Assembly (NCBI GenBank): GCA_030619985.1
Contig: JAUXAI010000041.1
Coordinates: 1 to 11,178, forward strand
Reading direction: 5' to 3'
DNA length: 11,178 nucleotides
Origin: a bacterium
GTDB lineage: Bacteria > UBP18 > UBA7526
The position numbers were made by a program, and so were the translations under genes. Under the pieces are notes generated by a model. The model had not been told where the DNA came from. It did not search any database and saw only the letters and a program-made list of their open reading frames with translations. Below are positions 1,591 through 10,569 of the stretch, one piece after another. Every line of letters begins with the position of its first letter. Within the stretch, counting starts at the first letter, position 1.

Positions 1591-2148
1591 CTACTCTTCC
1601 TCTTCTGGCAGGATCCCCCTTTTCCATTTTGCCGTGGGAAATCCCCTCATTACCCGATTGACGATATCCTTTGCCAAGTTGTCGATAGCTCTGGCCTTGC
1701 CCTTTGCCTCTGTCTCCTTCGGTTGGAGGGCTTCCTCCGTATACCAGATGGTGGTATCTCCCCTCATCCCTTCCTCTTTGAAGAGGACCTCACCGGTAGT
1801 CAGATCCTTTAAAGTAATATTGGCTTCAATATATACCCGATATTCCTCAGCTACATCGTAATCATCATAGGATAAAACATCCTTACCATAGCCACTTACG
1901 CCCCCCTGGAGTACGGCATCAGCATGCTTTAGGCTTACAATCTTCAGTCTCCCATCAGTGAGAAAGCTCTCAATAACGGCATCGGTCAGGCTATTCTCCG
2001 CCCCATACTCATAGGTATCGTTCCCGAATATGGGAATGGCAATCTTCTTAATATGGAGAGGTAGCTTATACTCTGCTTTATAGGCACAACTGGTTATCGT
2101 AATTCCCACTACGAGCACTGCCAATAGAATAATTCGTCTTATTTTCAT
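1591..2148 (-). CDS. lptE: LPS-assembly lipoprotein LptE-like (RlpB family) lipoprotein
   Basis: 185 aa. N-terminal signal peptide with lipobox (…VVGITITS-C-AY). Located immediately downstream of leuS on the same strand, the conserved leuS-lptE(-holA) order of many Gram-negatives. Size and secretion signals fit LptE. SD AGAGGAG lies 4 nt upstream of ATG 2148. No motif-level confirmation is possible by eye. Confidence 0.55.
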   Translation of the reverse strand: MKIRRIILLAVLVVGITITSCAYKAEYKLPLHIKKIAIPIFGNDTYEYGAENSLTDAVIESFLTDGRLKIVSLKHADAVLQGGVSGYGKDVLSYDDYDVAEEYRVYIEANITLKDLTTGEVLFKEEGMRGDTTIWYTEEALQPKETEAKGKARAIDNLAKDIVNRVMRGFPTAKWKRGILPEEEE

Positions 2149-2164
2149 TTTACTCCTCTTTAGA

Positions 2165-2209
2165 CACAGATGATCACAGATTTTTTACAGATATTCACAG
2201 ATTACAGAT
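2165..2209 (-). promoter_or_regulatory. Array of five [C/T]ACAGAT direct repeats (starts 2165, 2175, 2186, 2196, 2203; 10-11 bp phasing) immediately upstream of lptE; read in gene orientation = ATCTGTG/ATCTGTA
   Basis: Read directly. The copy nearest the gene runs into ATCTGTGTCTAAAGAGGAGtaaaATG, the same RBS-adjacent element seen at two other genes (see findings). Confidence 0.5.
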
Positions 2210-2453
2210 CGAATTCGGAAAACTAAAAGCTTGTGAAATAACCAAACACCAAGAGACAAGATACAAACAAACATCAATCACTAAATAACCAATGACCAAA
2301 ACAACTTGTCTTTATCAAATCTGGCGAAGCCAGAAAAGTTTGGTTATTTGAATTTGGATATTGTATATTGTCTGATTATTGTTTCTTGTATCTTGTGTCT
2401 TATTCTCTTACTTTCTCATTCTCTTACTTTTCTTCTTTCCTACTCTCCTACTT

Positions 2454-5066
2454 TTATTTGGTGACAATATTTACCAATTTCTTAGGGACAACGACCACTC
2501 TTTTGATTCCCTTTCCCGAAATAAACTTCCTTACCTTTTCATCAGATAGGGCCTTCTCTTTTATCTCCTCACCACTTGAATCTATAGGAACCTTTATTCT
2601 GCTTCGGAGTTTTCCATCTACTTGAATGACGATTAGAATCTCCTTTTCTATAATTGCTTTTGGATTATAGGTTGGCCAATCCTTTTGGCCGATACTCGGT
2701 TTATTGCCTAAGATCTCCCAGAGTTCTTCACAGATATGGGGAGCGAAGGGAGAGAGTAATAGCACCACGGTTTCGATGGCTTCTTCTATTGTCTGCCTGT
2801 CTGCCCGTCTACCTGTCTGCCTGTCTTTATCTTTTGACTGGCTGACTGGCTGACTGGCTGACTGGCTGACTACTGAGTGAATGGCATTGACCAGTTCCAT
2901 AATGGCAGAGATGGCGGTATTGAAATGGAACCTCTTCTCAATATCCTCAGTCACCTTCTTAATTGTTTTATGGGTAATCCTTTTTAACTCAGTTTCGGGT
3001 TTCGGGTTTCGGGTTTCGGGTTTACCTTGTAAATTAGAAATTGCCCGCCCCGCTTTGCTTGGCGAGGCCGGGGGAAATTGGAAATTAAAATCATTAATTA
3101 ATCTCCATACCCTATTCAAGAACCTAAACGACCCTTCTACCCCTTCCGCGCTCCATTCTAAGTCTTTCTCTGGAGGAGAGGCAAAGAGGATGAAGAGCCG
3201 GGCGGTATCTGCACCATATTTATTCGTTATTTCATCGACAGAAACCACATTTCCTTTTGATTTGGACATCTTGGCCCCATCCTTTACCACCATTCCCTGA
3301 CAGAATAGTTTCTTAAAGGGCTCATCAATCTTATATAATCCTATGTCTCTCAAGGCCTTGGTGAAGAATCGAGCATACAAAAGATGCATGATGGCATGCT
3401 CTATTCCCCCAATATATTGATCAACGGGCATCCAGTAATCTATTCTCTTTTCATCAAAAGGTTTTTTGGTATAATCCGGGCTACAGTATCTGGAGAAGTA
3501 CCAAGAGGAGTCGACGAAGGTATCCATGGTATCCGTCTCTCTTCTTGCTTTCCCCTTACACTTAGGACATCTGCAATTTACAAATTCTCGACATTCTTCT
3601 AAGGGGTTACCCTTTCCGGTAAATTTAATGTCCTTCGGTAACTCTACTGGCAGGTTCTTTTCTGGAACAGGAACTACTCCGCACTTCTCACAGTAGATGA
3701 TGGGAATGGGGGTCCCCCAGTATCTCTGTCGAGATATGAGCCAGTCGCGCAACTTATACTGAACCGTCTTCTTTCCCCATCCCTTCTCTTCTAGGTAGGT
3801 GGTAATCTTCCCTTTGGCCTCTTCTGAGTTTAGGCCAGTGAATTGAGCAGAATTCATCATTATTCCTGGATTAACATAGGCCTCCTTTAAATCGGTGCTC
3901 AGTGGTCGCCCCGACGAGCGCGGAGAAGAAGGGTCGGGGTCTCCGCTTCGCTCCGAGAGTTCGGAGTTCGGGGGCATGATAACTTGTTTGATGGGGATAT
4001 TGTATTTTTTGGCGAACTCGAAGTCCCTCTGGTCATGGGCGGGAACGGCCATGATAATCCCTGTACCATATTCTAAGAGAACGAAGTTAGCCACATAGAT
4101 GGGGACCTCCTCATTGGTTAAGGGATTGATGGCGTACCTACCGATGAAGACCCCTTCCTTCTCCTTATCCTCTGCCGTTCTGGTAAATCGATCCTCCAGG
4201 ATTACTCTATTTATAAATTCCTTGACTTCTTTCTCATACTTTGTGCCCTCAACTAATTCTAAAGCCAAAGGATGTTCACAGGCCATGGTCATGAAGGTTA
4301 CGCCGTATAAAGTATCCGGCCGGGTAGTGAAGATAGGGAGGGTCTTGTCGCTATCTTTGAGTTTGAAGTTGACCAAAGTTCCAGTTGACTTTCCGATCCA
4401 GTTCTCTTGCATTAGTTTCACCCTCTCCGGCCATCCTTCTAACTTTTTTAAATCTCTTAATAATTCCTTAGCATATTCTGTAATCTTGAGGAACCACTGT
4501 TCCAGATCCTTTATCTCAACCCTTGATTCACATCTCCAGCACTTTCCATCTTCAACCTGCTCATTGGCCAGAACGGTCTGACATTTAGGACACCAGTTGA
4601 TGGGCGCCTTCTTCTTATAGGCCAACCCCCTCTCATAGAACTTCAAGAAGATCCACTGGTTCCATCTATAATAGTCTGGCTGAGAGGTAATGACCAGTCT
4701 ATTCCAGTCATAGGATAATCCCATCTTCTCCTGCTGCTTCCTCATATCAGAGATGCATTTTCTCGTCCATTCTGCAGGATGGGTCTTATTCTGCATGGCA
4801 GCATTCTCTGCGGGAAGGCCGAAGGAATCATAGCCCATGGGATATAATACATTATATCCCCTCATCCTCAAGAAGCGAGTTAGGGTATCGCCAACCACAT
4901 AGTTTCTCATATGGCCCATATGGAGCTTTCCAGATGGGTAAGGAAACATCTCTAAAAGATAGTACTTTTTCTTCTCAGGGTCTTCCTTGACTTTGAACTG
5001 GCTCTTCTTTCCCCAGTAATCCTGCCATTTTTTTTCAATCTTTCGGAAAGGATAGTATCTTCCCAT
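2454..5066 (-). CDS. leuS: Leucyl-tRNA synthetase (class I aaRS), with low-complexity insertions
   Basis: HIGH-type motif (…PYPSGKLHMGHMRNY…) and KMSKS motif (…DGAKMSKSKGNVV…). N-terminus …YYPFRKIEKKWQDYW… and the editing/CP1 and C-terminal regions match bacterial LeuRS. The ORF-track start at 5117 (MQKGL…) would sit inside the predicted -35 box. ATG at 5066 (MGRYYPF…) is preceded by GGAGG with a 5-nt spacer. ATG 5078 is a less likely alternative. Confidence 0.95.
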   Translation of the reverse strand: MGRYYPFRKIEKKWQDYWGKKSQFKVKEDPEKKKYYLLEMFPYPSGKLHMGHMRNYVVGDTLTRFLRMRGYNVLYPMGYDSFGLPAENAAMQNKTHPAEWTRKCISDMRKQQEKMGLSYDWNRLVITSQPDYYRWNQWIFLKFYERGLAYKKKAPINWCPKCQTVLANEQVEDGKCWRCESRVEIKDLEQWFLKITEYAKELLRDLKKLEGWPERVKLMQENWIGKSTGTLVNFKLKDSDKTLPIFTTRPDTLYGVTFMTMACEHPLALELVEGTKYEKEVKEFINRVILEDRFTRTAEDKEKEGVFIGRYAINPLTNEEVPIYVANFVLLEYGTGIIMAVPAHDQRDFEFAKKYNIPIKQVIMPPNSELSERSGDPDPSSPRSSGRPLSTDLKEAYVNPGIMMNSAQFTGLNSEEAKGKITTYLEEKGWGKKTVQYKLRDWLISRQRYWGTPIPIIYCEKCGVVPVPEKNLPVELPKDIKFTGKGNPLEECREFVNCRCPKCKGKARRETDTMDTFVDSSWYFSRYCSPDYTKKPFDEKRIDYWMPVDQYIGGIEHAIMHLLYARFFTKALRDIGLYKIDEPFKKLFCQGMVVKDGAKMSKSKGNVVSVDEITNKYGADTARLFILFASPPEKDLEWSAEGVEGSFRFLNRVWRLINDFNFQFPPASPSKAGRAISNLQGKPETRNPKPETELKRITHKTIKKVTEDIEKRFHFNTAISAIMELVNAIHSVVSQSASQPVSQSKDKDRQTGRRADRQTIEEAIETVVLLLSPFAPHICEELWEILGNKPSIGQKDWPTYNPKAIIEKEILIVIQVDGKLRSRIKVPIDSSGEEIKEKALSDEKVRKFISGKGIKRVVVVPKKLVNIVTK
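2790..2872. repeat. Two adjacent octamer microsatellites inside the leuS ORF: (TGTCTGCC)x5 (two imperfect) at 2790-2827 and (GACTGGCT)x4.5 at 2836-2872
   Basis: Read directly. Translated in frame as …SQSASQPVSQSKDKDRQTGRRADRQT…, an insertion relative to the usual LeuRS segment just before the conserved …LLSPF.PHI… C-terminal region. Confidence 0.85.
2992..3023. repeat. Heptamer microsatellite (GTTTCGG)x4 + partial inside the leuS ORF
   Basis: Read directly. Encodes …GKPETRNPKPETEL…, part of a ~20-aa low-complexity insertion (QFPPASPSKAGRAISNLQGKPETRNPKPETE) in the anticodon-binding region ahead of …HKTIKKVTEDI…. Confidence 0.85.
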
Positions 5067-5088: not shown

Positions 5089-5117
5089 AGTATAGCATAA
5101 ATAAGACCTTTTTGCAA
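5089..5117 (-). promoter_or_regulatory. Sigma70-type promoter for leuS: -35 TTGCAA (5112-5117), 17-nt spacer, -10 TATACT (complement of 5089-5094)
   Basis: Hexamers and spacing read directly. Predicted TSS ~7 nt downstream gives a ~15-nt leader carrying GGAGG before ATG 5066. The -35 is fused to the conserved element …GCAAGCCCCGTTA (5114-5126). Confidence 0.5.
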
Positions 5118-5231
5118 GCCCCGTTAGAAAATTCTTTAGCTAAGGTGATATTTGCTATTTAAATGCAATCATTCTCTTAAAACGCAGTATTTAGAGAATG
5201 TGTCTATTAAGATTTCTAAAGGGGCAAGTTT

Positions 5232-5265
5232 TAAAAAAAGAGCCACTAAACAAGTTAGCGGCTCT
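5232..5265 (-). terminator. Rho-independent terminator downstream of bioY (minus strand): stem AGAGCCGCTAAC / GTTTAGTGGCTCT (one mismatch), loop ~CTT, followed by TTTTTTT
   Basis: Read directly. Plus strand shows the A7 run at 5233-5239, then AGAGCCACTAAAcaaGTTAGCGGCTCT at 5239-5265. Lies 29 nt after the bioY stop (5294). Confidence 0.6.
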
Positions 5266-5293: not shown

Positions 5294-5899
5294 CTACCGA
5301 GGAAAAATCTGACCTGCCCGATCTTGAAGTTTACAGTAGATGCTGGCAGCAGCGAATAACTTCAGGATGTCACCGGGGAGGAAAGGAAGTATTCCCAAAA
5401 GGAACGCTTTTCCAATTCCCAAGTGAAGAACCAGGGCAAGATGAATGGCCCCCAGGAGAAGAATAATTAAGGAACCCAGAACCATGGCCAGGACCGTCTG
5501 GCCAAAACCGGCTCTTTCTTTATTACTGAGCACCTTCCCAATTATATAGGCGGCAAGGATGAATCCTAAAAGATATCCGCCTGTAGGGCCAAAAAGAGGG
5601 ATTAAGCCACCTGTGGCGCCAGCAAAGATGGGAAAACCCAAACTTCCCAGGAATACGTACCCCAATTGGCTCAAAGCTCCCAACCTCTTGCCCAATAGGG
5701 CTCCAGCCAACAAGACGAAGAAGGTCTGGAGGGTAATGGGAACCGGGGTAAAGGGAATGGGAATCCTGACAAAGGCTCCCAGAGCAGTGAAGGCGATGAA
5801 GATGCCTATCCCAATCAGGGCACAGCCGATTCTATTAGTGACTACTTCCCGATTTCCGATTTTCCATAACTGATCCCATGTTTTTTCAATAACGACCAT
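5294..5899 (-). CDS. bioY: Biotin transporter BioY (ECF-type S component), solitary
   Basis: Membrane protein with …VRIPIPFTPVPITLQTFFVLLAGALLG… and …GPTGGYLLGFILAAYIIG…, characteristic of BioY. The track start 5908 is GTG. ATG 5899 (MVVIEK…) is preceded by AGGAGGTG with an 8-nt spacer. No ECF A/T components are in the window. Confidence 0.85.
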   Translation of the reverse strand: MVVIEKTWDQLWKIGNREVVTNRIGCALIGIGIFIAFTALGAFVRIPIPFTPVPITLQTFFVLLAGALLGKRLGALSQLGYVFLGSLGFPIFAGATGGLIPLFGPTGGYLLGFILAAYIIGKVLSNKERAGFGQTVLAMVLGSLIILLLGAIHLALVLHLGIGKAFLLGILPFLPGDILKLFAAASIYCKLQDRAGQIFPR

Positions 5900-5918
5900 C
5901 TCTTTCACCTCCTATTAC

Positions 5919-5948: not shown

Positions 5949-6746
5949 TTAATTTTTAATACTGAAATAATAAGCGCAGGCGAGATAGGCTAAATAGTCT
6001 GGGGTGGCCTGGTTCAATCTCGTGCCCAGAGAGGCCTTCATGCCGAAGGAAGGAGTGAAGCCATATTTGAATCCTCCATAGAGATCCAAAGTATTCTCCT
6101 TCACTGTAAGATGGGGTTCCTTATAGTTTGTCTTCCCCACTAACTCCAGGACCAATGAGACCGACTTTACAGGGTAGACATAGGCCGCCCCATAACTCAC
6201 CTGGTTAGAATATATCTTATCATCTGGTTCACCAACATACTTATAGCCTAGATTGAGATTGAGTTGCCCTCCAATTAGGTCTTTACTCACAATGAGATAG
6301 AGCGCATGATCAACCTCTCCTGTAGTCAGACCCTTGCTATCCGTATTAGTAGGGATTTTCAGAGAATACTTTGCTGCTAAGGATGGTAGATTATCCCTTT
6401 CCTCTGAGAATTGATACTTAAGCCCGCAGACAACATCCCCAAAGTCATGGTCGCTACCACTGTTATCCCTTCCCCATATGGCATCATGCACCTCAGGGGC
6501 AATGACCGCCTCTAAATGATCCGTTATCCCATAGGCTAAAGCAAGCCAGATGGAGGTGGTATAATAGCCAGGTGAGCCACTATAGACCACCTTGGGAATG
6601 GTGAGCTCGAATGTCCCCTTGGGTTCTGTTCCTGCATCATCCAAGACCACTCCCGCACCATACTTTGTGTGGCGTGCTTCTACTTTGGTAGAGAATCCCA
6701 AGATTAATGAACCCATTAAACCCAAAAATATCAAACAATTCCTCAT
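5949..6746 (-). CDS. Secreted protein with signal peptide; putative outer-membrane beta-barrel (Phenol_MetA_deg/transporter-like fold suspected)
   Basis: 265 aa. N-terminal signal peptide (MRNCLIFLGLMGSLILGFSTKVEA). Body rich in alternating aromatic/small residues and Gly/Tyr (…LNLNLGYKYVG…, …YGAAYVYPVKSVSLVLELVG…, …LDLYGGFKYGF…), typical of amphipathic beta-strands. SD AGGAGG lies 6 nt upstream of ATG 6746. That ATG overlaps the stop of the upstream gene (ATGA). Family assignment is a guess. Confidence 0.5.
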   Translation of the reverse strand: MRNCLIFLGLMGSLILGFSTKVEARHTKYGAGVVLDDAGTEPKGTFELTIPKVVYSGSPGYYTTSIWLALAYGITDHLEAVIAPEVHDAIWGRDNSGSDHDFGDVVCGLKYQFSEERDNLPSLAAKYSLKIPTNTDSKGLTTGEVDHALYLIVSKDLIGGQLNLNLGYKYVGEPDDKIYSNQVSYGAAYVYPVKSVSLVLELVGKTNYKEPHLTVKENTLDLYGGFKYGFTPSFGMKASLGTRLNQATPDYLAYLACAYYFSIKN

Positions 6747-7168
6747 CTTTTTCCTCCTAAAAAATCGTCTATCTTCTTAAGGCCCTCTGCACAGTATCCC
6801 ATTTTTAGCCAGGGACAATCCTTACAGATGACTGATAAATCACCTGGCTTGATCTTCTTCTTTACCGAATCCAGGACTTCCTTTATAGTCAATATATCCT
6901 CAGCTTTGAGATCCAGCCTTCCTGCTACCTGGCTATCTCTTTCCCTGACCCTTTCTTCACCCCCTACCGCTTCATTCTCGCAAAGTCCATTAATATTAAA
7001 AGGACAGGCGGCACAGATATCATCACAGCCTTCTATCAACTCAATCTCTAAGGTGGGATTATCCTTTATTTTTTGAATGACTCTTTCCATCCCTTTAATA
7101 AATTTCTCATCATATCCCAATCCCCGAAAGCCAAAAATGCATAAGAGATGATGAAGGCGCAGTCTCAT
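6743..7168 (-). CDS. DUF1284-like Cys-rich protein (MRLRLHHLLCIFGFRGLGY… N-terminus; CxxxCxxC plus additional Cys pairs)
   Basis: 141 aa. N-terminal HHLLC…F.G.GY pattern recalled from DUF1284. Eight cysteines including C-D-D-I-C-A-A-C-P and C-K-D-C-P, suggesting metal/Fe-S binding. First gene of a 3-gene minus-strand cluster (this, beta-barrel, bioY). Confidence 0.5.
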   Translation of the reverse strand: MRLRLHHLLCIFGFRGLGYDEKFIKGMERVIQKIKDNPTLEIELIEGCDDICAACPFNINGLCENEAVGGEERVRERDSQVAGRLDLKAEDILTIKEVLDSVKKKIKPGDLSVICKDCPWLKMGYCAEGLKKIDDFLGGKR

Positions 7169-7201
7169 CTGTTAACCTCTTTTTAATTTTGGTTAACTAT
7201 T

Positions 7202-7230
7202 ATGATAAAACAAACTTTTCTATTTGTCAA
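7202..7230 (-). promoter_or_regulatory. Promoter for the DUF1284 operon: -35 TTGACA (complement of 7225-7230), 17-nt spacer, -10 TATCAT (complement of 7202-7207)
   Basis: Read directly. The -35 is fused to GCCCCGTTA (7231-7239), as at leuS. Confidence 0.45.
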
Positions 7231-7271
7231 GCCCCGTTAAGATTTTTAACGGGGCAAGTATTTCTTGACAA
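7224..7271. promoter_or_regulatory. Palindromic divergent-promoter core: TTGTCAAGCCCCGTTAA (7224-7240) / TTAACGGGGC-aagtatttc-TTGACAA (7246-7271). Inner 9-bp arms CCCCGTTAA/TTAACGGGG can form a hairpin with loop GATTT
   Basis: Read directly. Each arm carries a -35 TTGACA pointing outward: one toward the DUF1284 operon (minus strand), one toward tRNA-Ala (plus strand). Confidence 0.6.
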
Positions 7272-7293
7272 GTCTAAAAAAATAGGATAAGAT
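7265..7293 (+). promoter_or_regulatory. Promoter for tRNA-Ala: -35 TTGACA (7265-7270), 17-nt spacer, -10 TAAGAT (7288-7293)
   Basis: Read directly. Predicted TSS ~7300, i.e. a ~7-nt 5' leader before the mature tRNA 5' end at 7307. Confidence 0.5.
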
Positions 7294-7306
7294 GAGAATA
7301 AAGGAT

Positions 7307-7382
<76 letters not shown>

Positions 7383-7385
7383 TAA

Positions 7386-7424
7386 CACGGATGCACACAG
7401 ATAACAGCACGGATTGACACAGAT
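7386..7424 (+). promoter_or_regulatory. Array of four CAC[G/A]GAT direct repeats (7386, 7396, 7408, 7418; 10-12 bp phasing) directly after tRNA-Ala and upstream of the SPFH gene; two inverted copies ATCCGTGT at 7438-7445 and 7477-7484
   Basis: Read directly. The last inverted copy abuts the RBS: gaaATCCGTGTCTAAGGAGGaaaaaATG. Confidence 0.5.
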
Positions 7425-7498
7425 TTATCCATAATTATCCGTGTATTTAATCCTAAATAGTGAGCAGAACAAAGAAATCCGTGTCTAAGGAGGAAAAA

Positions 7499-8488
7499 AT
7501 GGAATATCCGAGAAGAGAGACGCTGAGGATGGAGGACTTACTGCGTATGGCTCCCAGAGAAGGGGGAAGGATAAACCCGGTAGCCACGATACTCTTCATT
7601 ATTATTGCCGGGATAGGAATAGGATTGAGTTCCTACTTCCAAAACTTTATCTGGGGAATCCCCTTCTTTCTACTTGCTTTCTTGGTGGGAGCAGCACTGA
7701 AGATCGCCTCCCAGTGGGAGAGGGTAATTATCTTAAAATTGGGGAAGTTCCATCGCATGAAAGGCCCGGGACTATTCTGGGTTATTCCCATTATAGAAAG
7801 CATCCCCTACTGGATAGATATCAGGGTCTGGGCTACGGATATCAGGGCAGAACAGACTCTCACCAAAGATAATGTTCCAGTGGATGTGGATGCCATTGTA
7901 TTCTGGAAGGTCTTCGATCCCGAGAAGGCTGCTTTAGAGGTAGAGAACTATAGGGCAGCCATCTCCCTGGCCTCCCAGACCGCTTTGAGGGATACTATAG
8001 GAAAGACCTCACTCTCTGAGATGCTCGTGGGAAGGGAAAGATTGGATGTTGACCTCAAGAAGAGGATTGATGATCGGAGTGATCCCTGGGGGATCTCGGT
8101 TCAGTCTGTGGAGATCAGGGAGGTATTAATTCCTCAGGCACTACAGAAGGCCATGTCCATGCAGGCCCAGGCAGAGAGGGAGAAGCAGGCCCGGGTTCTC
8201 CTGGGTGAATCAGAGAAGTTAATCGCCGGCAAGTTTGAAGAAGCGGCAAAGACTTATGCCAACAACCCCACTGCTTTACATCTCAGGGCTATGAATATGC
8301 TCTATGAAGGATTGAAGGAGAAGGCCACCATCTTGATCGTTCCCTCTACGGCAGTAGATACCATGAATATAGGTGCTTTTGCGGGATTGACCGCCCTGGC
8401 CAAGATAACAACAAAGGAGATGGAGACCGAAGAGAAGAAGGAGAAGGAAAAAGAGAAAGAGCCACCGCCAAAGGCGGGAAAAAAGTAA
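7499..8488 (+). CDS. SPFH/band-7 (stomatin/prohibitin-like) membrane protein
   Basis: N-terminal hydrophobic anchor (…ILFIIIAGIGIGLSS…FFLLAFLVGAAL…) followed by an SPFH core (…WERVIILKLGKF…GPGLFWVIPIIE…VDVDAIVFWKV.DP…), then a coiled-coil region and a charged KE-rich tail. The track start 7460 is GTG. ATG 7499 has a strong SD, AAGGAGG with a 5-nt spacer. No NfeD partner gene is adjacent. Confidence 0.85.
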   Translation: MEYPRRETLRMEDLLRMAPREGGRINPVATILFIIIAGIGIGLSSYFQNFIWGIPFFLLAFLVGAALKIASQWERVIILKLGKFHRMKGPGLFWVIPIIESIPYWIDIRVWATDIRAEQTLTKDNVPVDVDAIVFWKVFDPEKAALEVENYRAAISLASQTALRDTIGKTSLSEMLVGRERLDVDLKKRIDDRSDPWGISVQSVEIREVLIPQALQKAMSMQAQAEREKQARVLLGESEKLIAGKFEEAAKTYANNPTALHLRAMNMLYEGLKEKATILIVPSTAVDTMNIGAFAGLTALAKITTKEMETEEKKEKEKEKEPPPKAGKK

Positions 8489-8548: not shown

Positions 8549-9034
8549 TTACTTAATGCAGGTTCTCACAATATCTGCATTCCAGCCCGTTCCTCCTGAT
8601 ACCCCATCCTTTCCATAAGAGACGATATCACAAGAGCCATCACTATTGCACTGATAGACATACTTGTTTCCCCAGGGATCTGTGGGCTCTTCCGCTGTCA
8701 CCCCTCTGCAGCCGCATCCCCCGCCGGTAGTGACAGCAAATCTTCGATACTTTATGTATGGCCCATTCCAGGCATCGAGGTCTTCATCTCCTTCAGCAGA
8801 TGGTTTCTTTACCAGGGCAGGAAGACCTTGATCCGTAGAGGGGAAATGTCCGATGCTAAGGCGATACATTTCCAAAGAGATGCTGAAGATATCCATCTCT
8901 GCCTTGACTGCTCTTACCCTTGTTTCCTCTTTACGATGGGGAATGATCTTCACCGAAGCAATAGCGGCTATTAGTCCCACGATGACTACCACTACCATGA
9001 GTTCGATTAAGGTTATGCCTCTCCTTCTATTCAT
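8549..9034 (-). CDS. gspG: Type II secretion / type IV pilin-like major pseudopilin, GspG family, orphan and Cys-rich
   Basis: N-terminus MNRRRGITLIELMVVVVIVGLIAAIA is a class III (prepilin) signal with G|ITLIE processing/methylation motif. The body matches GspG (…EMDIFSISLEMYRL.IGHFPSTDQGLPALVKKPSAEG…, …DPWGNKYVY…DIVSYGKDGVSGGTG.NADI…). Seven Cys (…GGGCGCRG…QCNSDGSCD…RTCIK) is unusual for GspG. The track start 9067 is TTG. ATG 9034 gives the canonical prepilin N-terminus but has no obvious SD. Confidence 0.8.
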   Translation of the reverse strand: MNRRRGITLIELMVVVVIVGLIAAIASVKIIPHRKEETRVRAVKAEMDIFSISLEMYRLSIGHFPSTDQGLPALVKKPSAEGDEDLDAWNGPYIKYRRFAVTTGGGCGCRGVTAEEPTDPWGNKYVYQCNSDGSCDIVSYGKDGVSGGTGWNADIVRTCIK

Positions 9035-9072
9035 TCTATTGCCTATTTTAAGGTATCGAAATTTCAATAAAA

Positions 9073-9145
9073 CAAGGTTCTCCGATGAAATCGGAGGTTC
9101 TTAATTCGTAGAATCAAGGTTCTCGCGAAGCGAGGTTCTTATTTT
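9073..9145. other. Tandem duplicated hairpin module: [CAAGGTT]-CTCCGAT-gaa-ATCGGAG-[GTTCTTAATT] (9073-9106) and [CAAGGTT]-CTCGC-gaa-GCGAG-[GTTCTTATTTT] (9115-9145)
   Basis: Read directly. Identical flanks and identical GAA loops, with different but still self-complementary stems (compensatory changes). Lies between the stop of the basic-protein gene (9139-9141, inside the second unit) and the pseudopilin gene. Confidence 0.55.
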
Positions 9146-9492
9146 CTTAATCGCTTGATCTCTTTCTCTTTCTTTCGAATCTTGGTCTCCAGATTCCTTA
9201 TCTCTTCACTCAGGGATTTCAGGTTCTTTTCGGAAATCTTTCCGCTTTTAATCAGGCGGTAAGTCTTCTTCCCCAGCTCCTTTAGTTTTCTATCCCTTTT
9301 CTGAACCAAAGGAACGATCTCCAGTCTCAACCTGCTAATCCTGGCTGTCTTTCCCGCCCCTTCCTTCGCCTTCTTGGCCAGAGCGGTCGTTCTTTTCCTA
9401 AATTCCGCCAGCCTCTTCCTCGCCTCTTCCAAATCCTTAATGAGGCTCTTCTTCGTCCTCTCCAGAATCCCTTCTATCTTCTTCTTTGCCAT
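9139..9492 (-). CDS. Small highly basic (K/R-rich) predicted coiled-coil protein, function unknown
   Basis: 117 aa, ~35% K+R, heptad-like charged pattern (…LEEARKRLAEFRKRTTALAKKAKE…, …EEIRNLETKIRKKEKEIKRLRK). SD GGAGGGAG lies 4 nt upstream of ATG 9492. No family recognised. Could be nucleoid-associated, phasin-like or ribosome-associated. Confidence 0.6.
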   Translation of the reverse strand: MAKKKIEGILERTKKSLIKDLEEARKRLAEFRKRTTALAKKAKEGAGKTARISRLRLEIVPLVQKRDRKLKELGKKTYRLIKSGKISEKNLKSLSEEIRNLETKIRKKEKEIKRLRK

Positions 9493-9505
9493 CTCTCCCT
9501 CCTAT

Positions 9506-9563
9506 ACACGGATTTCTTTTTACCGCTTATTGCGTTAGTTTAAAAACACGGATGGTCACGGAT
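9506..9563 (-). promoter_or_regulatory. Three CACGGAT repeats (plus strand 9507-9513, 9547-9553, 9557-9563), read in gene orientation as ATCCGTG, in the 5' region of the basic-protein gene
   Basis: Read directly. The proximal copy abuts the RBS: gaaATCCGTGTATAGGAGGGAGAGATG. Confidence 0.5.
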
Positions 9564-9578
9564 AAATTATAAGCGCGC

Positions 9579-9611
9579 CTGTCCGTCCGATCGCCTCTGG
9601 CGGACGGACGG
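9579..9611. other. GC-rich perfect hairpin: C-T-GTCCGTCCG (9579-9589) / loop ATCGCCTCTGG / CGGACGGAC-G-G (9601-9611), inside the long leader of the basic-protein gene
   Basis: Read directly. 9 perfect bp, extendable to 11 with a G-U pair. Embedded in AT-rich sequence with no adjacent U-run on either strand, so not a canonical intrinsic terminator. Confidence 0.6.
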
Positions 9612-9693
9612 AAATTATTGCGAACATTATAACTGCAAAGACGCAAAATTTAATTTAAAAACGCAAAACTGAGATTCCTTGTTGCTTTATCAT

Positions 9694-9722
9694 ATTATAG
9701 TATATTATTTGGACTTTTGCAA
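9694..9722 (-). promoter_or_regulatory. Putative promoter: -35 TTGCAA (9717-9722), 17-nt spacer, -10 TATAAT (complement of 9694-9699), immediately after the nfo stop
   Basis: Read directly. It would give a ~190-nt leader for the basic-protein gene, containing the GC hairpin and the ATCCGTG repeats. Confidence 0.4.
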
Positions 9723-9726
9723 GTAA

Positions 9727-10569
9727 TTATCTGGCCAATCTTCGCAGAGTGGCCAAGTTCTTTAAATCATCCCCTGGTTCTTTAAAGGGGGTCTCAATGA
9801 TGATTGGTAGATTTATTATCGCTGGATGATGCAATAATGCCCGGAACCCTTCCTCTCCAATATATCCCTTTCCAATGTGCCAGTGGCGATCGATATGGGA
9901 ACCTAAAGGACTTTTGGAGTCATTGGCGTGGATAACCTTTAGTTTCTTCAAGCCAATTAAATTATCAAATAATTTCAAGGTTTTAGAGACTGCCTTCTTC
10001 GTCCTAAAATCATACCCACTGGCAAAGCCATGACAGGTATCGAAACAGACCCCGATCCTTTCCTTCTCTTTGATACTTTTGATAATTTTTGCAAGCTCCT
10101 CGAACCTGCTGCCTAACTCTCTTCCTCCCCCTGCGGTATTCTCTAAAAGGAGCATGACATCGTTCTTTACTTTAACAAAAGCAGTATTTATTCCTTCGGT
10201 CACTCTCGCTATTCCTTCTTCCCGGCTGGAAAGGTCGGAAAAGCTTCCGATATGAGTAACGAGATAAGGCGCTCCCAAGACCTCGGATCTTCTTAAGTCT
10301 TCTTCTAAGGCATTGACTGATTTAAGATATAATCCAATTTTAGGAGAGGCTAGGTTGGGAAGATAGGGCATATGAACGATGAGGGGATGGATGTCAAATC
10401 TTTCTAAATCATCCCTCAGTCTCTTTGCTTCATCGGAAAGGAGTTCTTTGAGTTGCCATCCCCTTGGGTTTCGAGAGAAGATCTGGGCAGTATTGCATCC
10501 TATCCTTTTGGCCCTCTCTGCCACCTGATATATCTTACCCGCAATGGAGATGTGAGCCCCAAACCTCAT
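9727..10569 (-). CDS. nfo: Endonuclease IV (AP endonuclease family 2)
   Basis: 280 aa with Endo IV signatures: …GAHIS…, …IHPLIVHMPYLPNLAS…, …YLVTHIGS…, …LLENTAGGG…, …CFDTCHGFASGYD…, …HANDSK….G.H.DRH. ATG 10569 overlaps the stop of the upstream gene (ATGA). Confidence 0.9.
   Translation of the reverse strand: MRFGAHISIAGKIYQVAERAKRIGCNTAQIFSRNPRGWQLKELLSDEAKRLRDDLERFDIHPLIVHMPYLPNLASPKIGLYLKSVNALEEDLRRSEVLGAPYLVTHIGSFSDLSSREEGIARVTEGINTAFVKVKNDVMLLLENTAGGGRELGSRFEELAKIIKSIKEKERIGVCFDTCHGFASGYDFRTKKAVSKTLKLFDNLIGLKKLKVIHANDSKSPLGSHIDRHWHIGKGYIGEEGFRALLHHPAIINLPIIIETPFKEPGDDLKNLATLRRLAR

Follow-up and report, generated by a model that had tools for sequence, protein, structure and literature searches.

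We analysed an 11,178-nt stretch of DNA (hereafter the window), which is the entire NCBI contig JAUXAI010000041.1 from a bacterium of the lineage UBP18. It encodes LptE and an SPFH/Band_7 protein, both calls supported by Pfam, as well as a confirmed tRNA-Ala and a 117-aa basic protein (Table 1). The heptamer ATCYGTG was found 15 times on the two strands, compared with 1.77 ± 1.34 copies (maximum 6) expected from 200 dinucleotide-preserving shuffles, none of which reached 15. Twelve of the 15 copies fell into three intergenic clusters, upstream of lptE, the SPFH gene and the basic-protein gene. The longer string ATCYGTGTMTA, with up to one mismatch, was present six times, against 0.49 expected. 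The recurrence upstream of three genes reported by a first-pass annotation of this DNA is thus real.

Upstream of lptE, three strict copies lie on the minus strand (2165-2171, 2175-2181 and 2196-2202), together with two ATCTGTA variants (2186-2192 and 2203-2209), and the start-to-start spacing in gene orientation is 7, 10, 11 and 10 nt. The five copies annotated there stand only if a G-to-A change of the last base is allowed. This array consists of a sense ("right") arm alone, and slippage has probably lengthened it. It follows leuS, with no promoter between the array and the Shine-Dalgarno sequence (SD), and is located directly 3' of a long hairpin that occupies most of the 305-nt leuS-lptE spacer. 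Over its ~190 nt the hairpin pairs an AC-rich with a GT-rich arm and has a GC loop stem, ctggcttcgccag; it may be a processing site or similar to a MITE (miniature inverted-repeat transposable element).

Between tRNA-Ala and the SPFH gene, an antisense ("left") arm begins 3 nt past the tRNA 3' end. Its four copies had been placed correctly, and the two strict sense heptamers that follow (7437-7443 and 7477-7483), annotated before as inverted copies, proved to be one position off. The inner dimer aligns with the ATCCGTG-att-ATCCGTG of L130, L139 and L140 (loci fetched from other genomes are given here as L numbers). The three copies upstream of the basic-protein gene (9507-9513, 9547-9553 and 9557-9563) were confirmed and are all sense. 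The promoter of this gene is ~200 nt upstream of the proximal box, and therefore the repeat lies within a transcribed leader. A sigma-70 promoter was also sought inside the repeat module described below, and all -10-like hexamers there were without the final T.

The junction between the copy nearest the start codon and the ribosome-binding site (RBS) is conserved, and the three strings quoted by the first-pass annotation were recovered as such: ATCCGTGTCTA-AGGAGG for SPFH (7477-7493), ATCTGTGTCTA-AAGAGGAG for lptE (2171-2153, minus strand) and ATCCGTGTATA-GGAGGG for the basic-protein gene (9513-9497, minus strand). The last heptamer is 4 nt from the SD at all three genes.

Table 1 Repeat features and genes of the window.
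Feature	Position	Strand	Remarks
lptE-proximal array	2161-2209	-	ATCTGTA ATCTGTG aat ATCTGTA aaaa ATCTGTG atc ATCTGTG + TCTA; Tandem Repeats Finder period 10
SD and spacer AAGAGGAGTAAA before lptE ATG	2149-2160	-	ancestral; GGAGGAGTAAAATG also in array-less L227
Long imperfect hairpin	2225-2420	-	-72.1 kcal/mol, z = -3.2; in the lineage-specific leuS-lptE spacer
Antisense ("left") arm	7386-7424	-	plus strand CACGGAT gca CACAGAT aacag CACGGAT tga CACAGAT; spacing 10-12-10; antisense to SPFH
Inner dimer of sense arm	7427-7443	+	ATCCATA att ATCCGTG; first copy (7427-7433) degenerate
Conserved internal module segment	7444-7476	+	tatttaatcc...gcagaacaaagaa; alignment A1
Terminal box ATCCGTGTCTA	7477-7487	+	followed by SPFH SD AGGAGG (7488-7493) and ATG (7499)
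Terminal box ATCCGTGTATA	9503-9513	-	SD GGAGGGAGAG of basic-protein gene directly after
Internal segment and inner dimer ATCCGTG acc ATCCGTG	9514-9563	-	sense arm only; 72-nt homology to SPFH leader
Rest of ~190-nt leader insertion	9564-9693	-	GC hairpin, TTTTGCGT twice; between promoter and module
Sigma-70-type promoter TTGCAA-17-TATAAT, basic-protein gene	9694-9722	-	conserved in L001, L005 and L136
Amino-acid permease gene	to 1434	-	
lptE	1591-2148	-	ATG at 2146-2148; Pfam LptE
leuS	2454-5066	-	
bioY	5294-5908	-	
MetA-type outer-membrane protein gene	5949-6746	-	
DUF1284 gene	6743-7168	-	
tRNA-Ala	7307-7382	+	
SPFH/Band_7 gene	7499-8488	+	ATG at 7499; Pfam
T2SS-G pseudopilin gene	8549-9067	-	open reading frame as listed
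117-aa basic protein gene	9139-9492	-	no Pfam family
nfo-like apurinic/apyrimidinic endonuclease gene	9727-10569	-	

The SPFH and basic-protein leaders are homologous over 72 nt (7423-7494 and 9496-9567). They define a module of ~75 nt, consisting of ATCCGTG-att-ATCCGTG, tatttaatcccaagcagtatgcagaataaagaa and ATCCGTG-TCTA, with the SD after it; across copies its size is ~75-100 nt, and what had been called an RBS box is its outer end. We recognized the module upstream of unrelated genes: SPFH, the basic protein, exbB (L130), cvpA (L131, L139 and L140) and a eutN-like gene (L138). Alignment A1, with copies upstream of four unrelated genes, had a mean identity of 77%. At the lptE site the module-end box is also present, together with the array. 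When five module copies were aligned and folded (RNAalifold), the result was -1.2 kcal/mol, with no conserved fold and no covariation. A search of Rfam 15 at E <= 1 gave no match at the arrays, and only the tRNA region obtained a score.

A scan of one genome per GTDB species with the strict box GAAATCYGTGTMTARGRRGG returned eight stretches only. Three were relatives of the window (the L005 contig, L130 and L131), and the other five, each a single isolated copy in a taxon not related to it, we read as chance. Scanning JGI metagenomes added the module loci L138, L139 and L140. Plain arrays were found upstream of rpsU and of a gene for a chorismate-binding enzyme, and also at a B12-riboswitch/TonB-receptor leader.

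The complete unit has two arms with outward-facing heptamers, placed back to back or enclosing cargo. Two such arms, unequal to each other, were found at 7386-7487 in the window, in L139, in L130, at 12454-12521 of L005 and in phage cassettes. This geometry alone makes the gene-nearest copy always "sense". In L139, the four-copy antisense arm with 10-12-10 spacing recurs at the 3' end of yqeY, between yqeY and cvpA, and a PD-(D/E)XK (GxxExxY) gene is located between this arm and the cvpA module. Two copies of a PD-(D/E)XK_3 (GxxExxY) gene, at 1-365 and 1379-1744 of L139, are inserted into the spacers upstream of rpsU and cvpA; L131 and L140 have none at either site. L130 carries an inverted array of seven heptamers, in which a 54-aa open reading frame (ORF) ends. 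At 1594-2380 of this locus the array is followed by a consensus promoter, an apparent cobalamin riboswitch leader and a TonB-dependent receptor gene, and two more antisense heptamers lie past the terminator of the cobalamin-type leader. The 54-aa ORF gave weak, sub-threshold matches to the helix-turn-helix (HTH) families HTH_23, Sigma70_r4 and Mor, and we dropped it as a candidate binder because it had no homologue in any other fetched array-bearing locus.

To describe the distribution of the heptamer, we compared array-positive loci (the window, L005, L130, L131, L139 and L140) with array-negative loci (L001, L007, L136, L137 and L225-L227). Of the related assemblies, GCA_030615855.1 is array-positive, and GCA_002478245.1, GCA_021733565.1 and GCA_011049955.1 are array-negative. 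The former had 56 copies in 6.9 kb of spacer (8.2/kb) versus 5 in 37 kb of coding DNA (0.13/kb), and the latter 0.19/kb and 0.16/kb, respectively. Among spacers of at least 40 nt, two or more copies were present in 14 of 35 (~40%) in the array-positive and in 0 of 32 in the array-negative loci, and the array-negative loci had no phased heptamer pair, even with one mismatch allowed. ATCTGTG and ATCCGTG were the two top-ranked 7-mers recurring within spacers. The modal spacing was 10 bp in bacterial loci (16 cases versus 3 at 12 bp) and 9-10 bp in phage loci, in agreement with the phasing of about one helical turn described earlier. The arrays are hence non-random and non-coding. They are a genome-wide repeat of spacers.

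The genes next to arrays are functionally unrelated (SPFH, lptE, basic protein, exbB, cvpA, eutN-like, rpsU, chorismate-binding enzyme, B12-riboswitch/TonB-receptor leader). With respect to promoters, the positions are heterogeneous: upstream of -35, in leaders or after terminators. A three-gene envelope/stress regulon, as first suggested, does not agree with arrays that stand beside unrelated genes in 14 of 35 spacers and are not kept at orthologues. Other spacers of the same genomes carry unrelated arrays (TGTTCAW; an ACTAAC-type at 1461-1495; TTGGCG; GTTGATAA), and these genomes have other small insertions too, some in frame inside leuS.

We used LptE and leucyl-tRNA synthetase (LeuRS) homologues to retrieve orthologous loci from nine genomes or contigs, with an LptE identity of 76-94%. 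The nearest named LeuRS sequences were from Elusimicrobiota, at ~60-63%. No record matched the LptE, basic protein or LeuRS of the window exactly. None of the nine relatives (L001, L005, L007, L136, L137, L225, L226, L227 and L228) had the lptE array, not even L225, whose LptE is 94% identical. Compared with the 305 nt of the window, the leuS-lptE spacer measured 8 nt in L001, 38 nt in L007, 76 nt in L005 and 168 nt in L136. In L005, L137 and L225-L228 it was 76-110 nt long and had a different heptamer array (TGTTCAW), and in L136 it was built of other repeats. L227 shares with the window the unusual 156-nt lptE-permease spacer and the SD GGAGGAGTAAAATG but misses the array, showing that the lptE array is a recent gain which ends exactly at the ancestral SD. 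The lptE-permease spacer (1436-1590 in the window) contains short AGTT/ACTAAC-type repeats with an inverted partner, and is only 7 nt long in L001, L005 and L007 and 4 nt in L137.

For the basic-protein gene, the distance from promoter to SD is ~20 nt in L001 and L136, while the window and L005 carry the ~190-nt insertion with the module. The arrays thus accompany spacer expansion at both genes. The box was absent from L001 and L136, and also from the short leader of L007. In L005, the second heptamer of this module is broken by a 19-nt palindromic insertion. Retention of the RBS-adjacent box in orthologous genes, on which its proposed role depended, was therefore not found for lptE in the nine relatives or for the basic-protein gene in L001, L007 and L136. 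At the SPFH locus the window and L005 are near-identical, a single SPFH-proximal heptamer (ATCCGTGTTTAAGGAGG) persists downstream of a canonical promoter in L136, and only a degenerate one is left in L001.

The tRNA-Ala is inverted relative to SPFH in the window (7169-7498) compared with L001 (3762-4022) and L136 (2978-3283), where a separate TTGACA promoter serves SPFH. For the window and L005, SPFH may be read through from tRNA-Ala, because the only consensus promoter of this spacer facing SPFH is that of the tRNA and there is no terminator-like site after the tRNA.

In a viral scan with the triple-array pattern we recovered at least 120 stretches. The raw number is not evidence, because a reversed-heptamer control gave 84. 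Separate array sites, 2-5 per locus, were present in 19 of the 120 ATCYGTG-array loci and in none of the 84 controls. L035, which encodes a minor-tail protein Z and a tape-measure protein, has five inverted triple-array cassettes between its late genes, in the order CACGGAT x3, a terminator hairpin or other filler, and ATCYGTG x3. They fold with -76 kcal/mol (z = -12.7), and the GTGTCC(C)AA that extends their ends is similar to GTGTCTAA of the window. Arrays of this kind, differing in spacers and flanks, were found in L032/L069, L083, L012, L114, L124, L076, L118 and others, at 43-67% G + C, and several of the array-bearing phage contigs share structural proteins. In L042/L094 the arms flank a 49-aa ORF. 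In L032/L069 all arrays are on one strand, independent of gene direction.

L230, a close relative of L035 (flanking protein 96% identical), carries similarly built cassettes at these two junctions, but composed of other short repeats, and more distant relatives of L035 have overlapping genes with no spacer there. The pair L229 (3300033153_013534) and L230 (3300033148_006939), with a 96% identical flanking protein and cassettes at both junctions, uses ATCYGTG in the first and NNTCAAT plus GGTCAGA-type units in the second. When phage-type arrays were compared by BLASTN with the genomes of 50,697 cultured phages, nothing matched. A whole-word literature search with four heptamer strings found incidental single mentions only, in papers that do not describe the motif.

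In summary, the motif is dispersed and confined to spacers; close relatives differ by its gain or loss, its anatomy is modular with two arms, and bacteria and phages have it in common. We consider it somewhat more probable than not (roughly 0.55) that the ATCYGTG heptamers are subunits of a small mosaic dispersed intergenic repeat, similar to MITEs or to bacterial interspersed mosaic elements (BIMEs), in an uncultured Elusimicrobiota-related lineage and in a set of uncultured tailed phages. The family, built from phased heptamers, is seemingly undescribed. The element would have spread through the gene spacers of some genomes, with a left arm of three to four copies reading CACRGAT and a right arm made of ATCYGTG-nnn-ATCYGTG, a conserved segment of ~31 nt and ATCYGTG-TMTA. 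The arms would stand back to back or on either side of variable cargo, and the right arm would abut the SD of the next gene with its outer end. According to this model, 7386-7487 would be a complete element without cargo between tRNA-Ala and SPFH, 9503-9563 a right arm inside the ~190-nt leader insertion, and 2161-2209 a recently acquired right arm expanded by slippage upstream of lptE.

Constant heptamers with variable spacers in a 9-10-bp register are most likely the sites of an oligomerising, sequence-specific DNA-binding protein, and such a factor, already invoked by the first-pass annotation, is still the simplest reason for this pattern. The putative binder might be a transposase or recombinase moving the element, or a regulator using it. 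We favour a DNA over an RNA binder because of the equal conservation of both strands, the 9-10-bp register and the arrays of L032, whose strand does not depend on gene direction. As copies are transcribed within leaders, they probably affect the neighbouring genes as a side effect. Where arms are paired, they would form an interrupted hairpin ending beside a free SD: in the fold predicted for 7383-7505 (z = -2.1), 7385-7392 is paired with 7477-7484, 7407-7414 is paired with 7437-7444, and the SD stays free.

Several observations weigh against a mobile repeat element. The strict module is rare, with 1-2 copies per genome, and it is the arrays, not a fixed element, that are abundant. Two of the three copies in the window (lptE and the basic-protein gene) are single-armed. 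The mobility is something we infer: there was no target-site duplication and no clean pair of filled and empty sites, TA flanks being frequent but not universal; no transposase-sized ORF lay between arms in any fetched locus, a limited sample; and no heptamer-binding protein was identified. The SPFH-proximal heptamer kept in array-negative relatives hints at a local function rather than pure selfishness. Close relatives also differ by replacement of whole spacers with cassettes of other short repeats (L229 versus L230; the lptE and rpsU spacers). Finally, the contrast between spacer and coding densities is approximate, as it relies on greedy ORFs of at least 90 aa, and its counts are not fully independent because of homology overlap (the window with L005; L131, L139 and L140 with each other).

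A related proposal, which we put forward tentatively and with clearly less confidence, is that the arrays are recognised by a trans-acting protein family which a clade of uncultured tailed phages has in common with its hosts, either a regulator or an undescribed type of transposase or recombinase. In this case the two-armed cassette would serve as a portable "leader module", placing a control point directly 5' of the RBS of whichever gene it lands beside, and cassettes of different specificity would be exchangeable at one junction, as for L229/L230 and the lptE spacers.

The direct repeats in a modal 10-bp register, the conserved heptamers with free spacers and the equal conservation of both orientations, as for double-stranded DNA recognition, would also suit operator arrays of a global DNA-binding regulator. 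This would be present only in the array-positive genomes and the phages and would act upstream of the RBS as a roadblock or repressor, "stoperator"-like; it might be a winged-helix response regulator of the tandem-binding type, a NarL-like binder of heptamers or a ribbon-helix-helix (RHH)/MraZ-type oligomer. The L032 and L069 arrays that keep one strand whatever the gene direction, the SPFH-proximal heptamer kept in L136 and the all-or-none distribution among genomes, fitting a trans factor that is present or absent, point the same way. We nevertheless find such a regulator unlikely, given that 40% of spacers and unrelated downstream genes are a poor fit to a specific regulon, that sites are heterogeneous relative to promoters and not conserved at orthologous genes, and that an insertion-split copy is tolerated in L005. 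The window encodes no regulator gene, a response regulator included (Pfam), and the sole small HTH ORF beside an array, that of L130, stands without a homologue in the other fetched loci. From the OmpR/PhoB-type box of the first-pass annotation, the repeat length and spacing remain; the sites are not at -35 and not conserved at orthologues, and the downstream genes are heterogeneous. Integrase arm-type sites near a tRNA gene were rejected, since neither the several sites in each phage late operon nor the 40% share of spacers is compatible with them.

At the RNA level, AUCYGUG in the leader might be bound by a TRAP- or CsrA-like translational regulator, or pair with CACRGAU in cis or trans (tRNA-Ala 3' trailer), tuning translation or forming an RNase III site. 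The gene-proximal copies are sense at all three genes of the window, in a leader after a consensus promoter or a co-directional gene, and their distance to the SD is fixed at 4 nt, but the outward two-arm geometry yields gene-side sense copies without any RNA function. Pairing is suggested by the SPFH-leader fold, which joins the outer heptamers, and by the strongly folding L035 cassettes, where three arm pairs are G-U and none A-C. Against it, the arms have decayed differently and are unpaired in many cassettes (e.g., L012), the copies at lptE and at the basic-protein gene are without an antisense partner, and there was neither an Rfam match nor covariation. An otherwise unstructured module would suit a single-stranded protein-binding site. 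However, a TRAP- or CsrA-like operator would be expected to have its repeats on the sense strand, while the L032 arrays upstream of minus-strand genes are antisense, and antisense arms are equally conserved. Together with the missing fold of the module, this weakens the RNA operator offered earlier as an alternative, and we regard it as quite improbable. The lowest credence goes to a functionless by-product of a lineage-specific mutational process, replication slippage or template switching, by which short tandem repeats would arise and be replaced in spacers. Unrelated short-repeat arrays in other spacers of the same genomes, period-7 and period-8 repeats in frame inside leuS, and the differently built cassettes at the same two junctions in the close relative of L035 would fit such a process, and the two adjacent heptamers at 2196-2209 look like slippage. 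Slippage explains the other short-repeat arrays, not the recurrence of ATCYGTG: this one heptamer is found across numerous unlinked loci of several genomes, and its phage hosts range over 43-67% G + C, with varying spacers and flanks, the control heptamer was never multi-site, and a 75-nt module is common to unrelated genes.

If the dispersed-repeat reading is true, nothing specific to lptE, SPFH or envelope stress can be read from the arrays, and it would be wrong to annotate them as a regulon. In some genomes the family would take ~40% of the spacers, in close relatives none, and it would be placed where transcription ends and translation starts. Its all-or-none distribution would offer a direct route to the binder via phylogenetic profiling. 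It would also represent a natural experiment, in which small mobile sequences rewire leaders in streamlined genomes whose genes are otherwise 7-8 bp apart.

Other repeats were recognized in the window. With 870 aa, LeuRS is longer than in most relatives (817-850 aa), the difference being due to in-frame insertions in leuS (minus strand; 2786-2873, 2992-3023 and ~3895-3970), which contain period-8 repeats, (TGTCTGCC)n and (TGACTGGC)n, and a period-7 repeat, (GTTTCGG)n. The insertions also include a GC-rich palindromic piece coding for SELSERSGDPDPSSPRSSGR, a peptide present in the relative P0020 at a second, different LeuRS site too; it resembles a mobile insertion of the RPE type within an essential gene. 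A membrane-protein ORF of L130 (6827-7960; 377 aa, unannotated) has an insertion, GRRTDGQTDRRTG, similar to that in leuS. A second dispersed motif, GCCCCGTTA(A/G)A...GGGGCAAGT (repeat family D11), was found at 5116-5130, 5207-5232 and 7228-7262, its hairpins adjoining the TTGCAA/TTGACA -35 boxes of the leuS, DUF1284 and tRNA-Ala promoters. Two copies of a mini-hairpin (AAGGTTCT-stem-loop-GGTTCTTA) lie at 9068-9138, between the basic-protein and pseudopilin genes, and the same type is inserted within the heptamer module upstream of cvpA in L131 (~1420-1450). A permissive Rfam scan labelled the tRNA-Ala region 7307-7382 as tmRNA (43 bits, under the 47-bit gathering score); here the tRNA-like part of the model matched a normal tRNA, and there is no tmRNA gene.

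Phased direct-repeat operators with a 6-7-bp unit are known as OmpR/PhoB boxes, NarL heptamers, omega-protein heptads and MraZ boxes. The arrays resemble them in having 2-5 copies about one helical turn apart, with variable number and, as for NarL and omega, variable orientation. They differ in their positions and in their ~40% share of spacers, and the heptamer matches none of these consensus motifs. Neither do the DnaA box (TTATCCACA), the CRP half-site, or the PhoB, WalR, ResD, Spo0A, NarL and omega heptad consensus match the heptamer. Repetitive extragenic palindromic (REP) units are 20-40-nt palindromes tied to RAYT transposases, and the short tandemly repeated repetitive (STRR) sequences of heterocystous cyanobacteria have contiguous 7-nt units with a 7-bp period. 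Like REP/BIME and STRR repeats, our arrays are extragenic mosaics of direct and inverted short units, with very high copy number and variable unit number; unlike them, the heptamers are spaced 9-12 bp apart in two outward-facing arms.

The start-associated sequences (SAS) and extended SAS (ESAS) of Cluster K mycobacteriophages are asymmetric boxes a few nt from the starts of unrelated genes, in one orientation and joined to the RBS (PMC3203893). In many cases imperfect inverted repeats, a variable spacer between them, stand before the box; departures in these repeats do not support RNA pairing, and while their function is unknown, the authors favour binding sites of a host or phage factor (PMC3203893). 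The consensus, GGGATAGGAGCCC, contains the SD and is limited to one phage cluster, being absent from the host chromosome (PMC3203893). The heptamer box is analogous in position and orientation, in behaviour only and not as a member: its sequence is unrelated to GGGATAGGAGCCC, and the conservation of SAS extends over gene families from phage to phage, whereas the heptamer arrays are gained and lost between close relatives.

Bacterial MITEs such as the Correia/NEMIS elements of Neisseria are ~100-200 bp long, non-coding and multi-copy, lie mostly in spacers and are co-transcribed with genes; their terminal inverted arms form long hairpins around a variable internal segment, with possible protein-binding sites (PMC2229807). 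A literature search for the Correia repeat string gave no match, so that any similarity between GCGGATTAAC and CACGGATTAAC is tentative. For the heptamer element no parent transposase, target duplication or empty site was found. It differs from MITEs in arms made of 2-4 phased copies with free spacers instead of continuous inverted repeats, in its many single-armed copies and in being common to phages. It is like them in that it is short and non-coding, has a variable internal segment, may carry protein-binding sites and occurs in many copies scattered over spacers, beside genes with which it is transcribed, the module being found upstream of five unrelated genes, in genomes that also carry, as with RPE elements, in-frame insertions in conserved genes.

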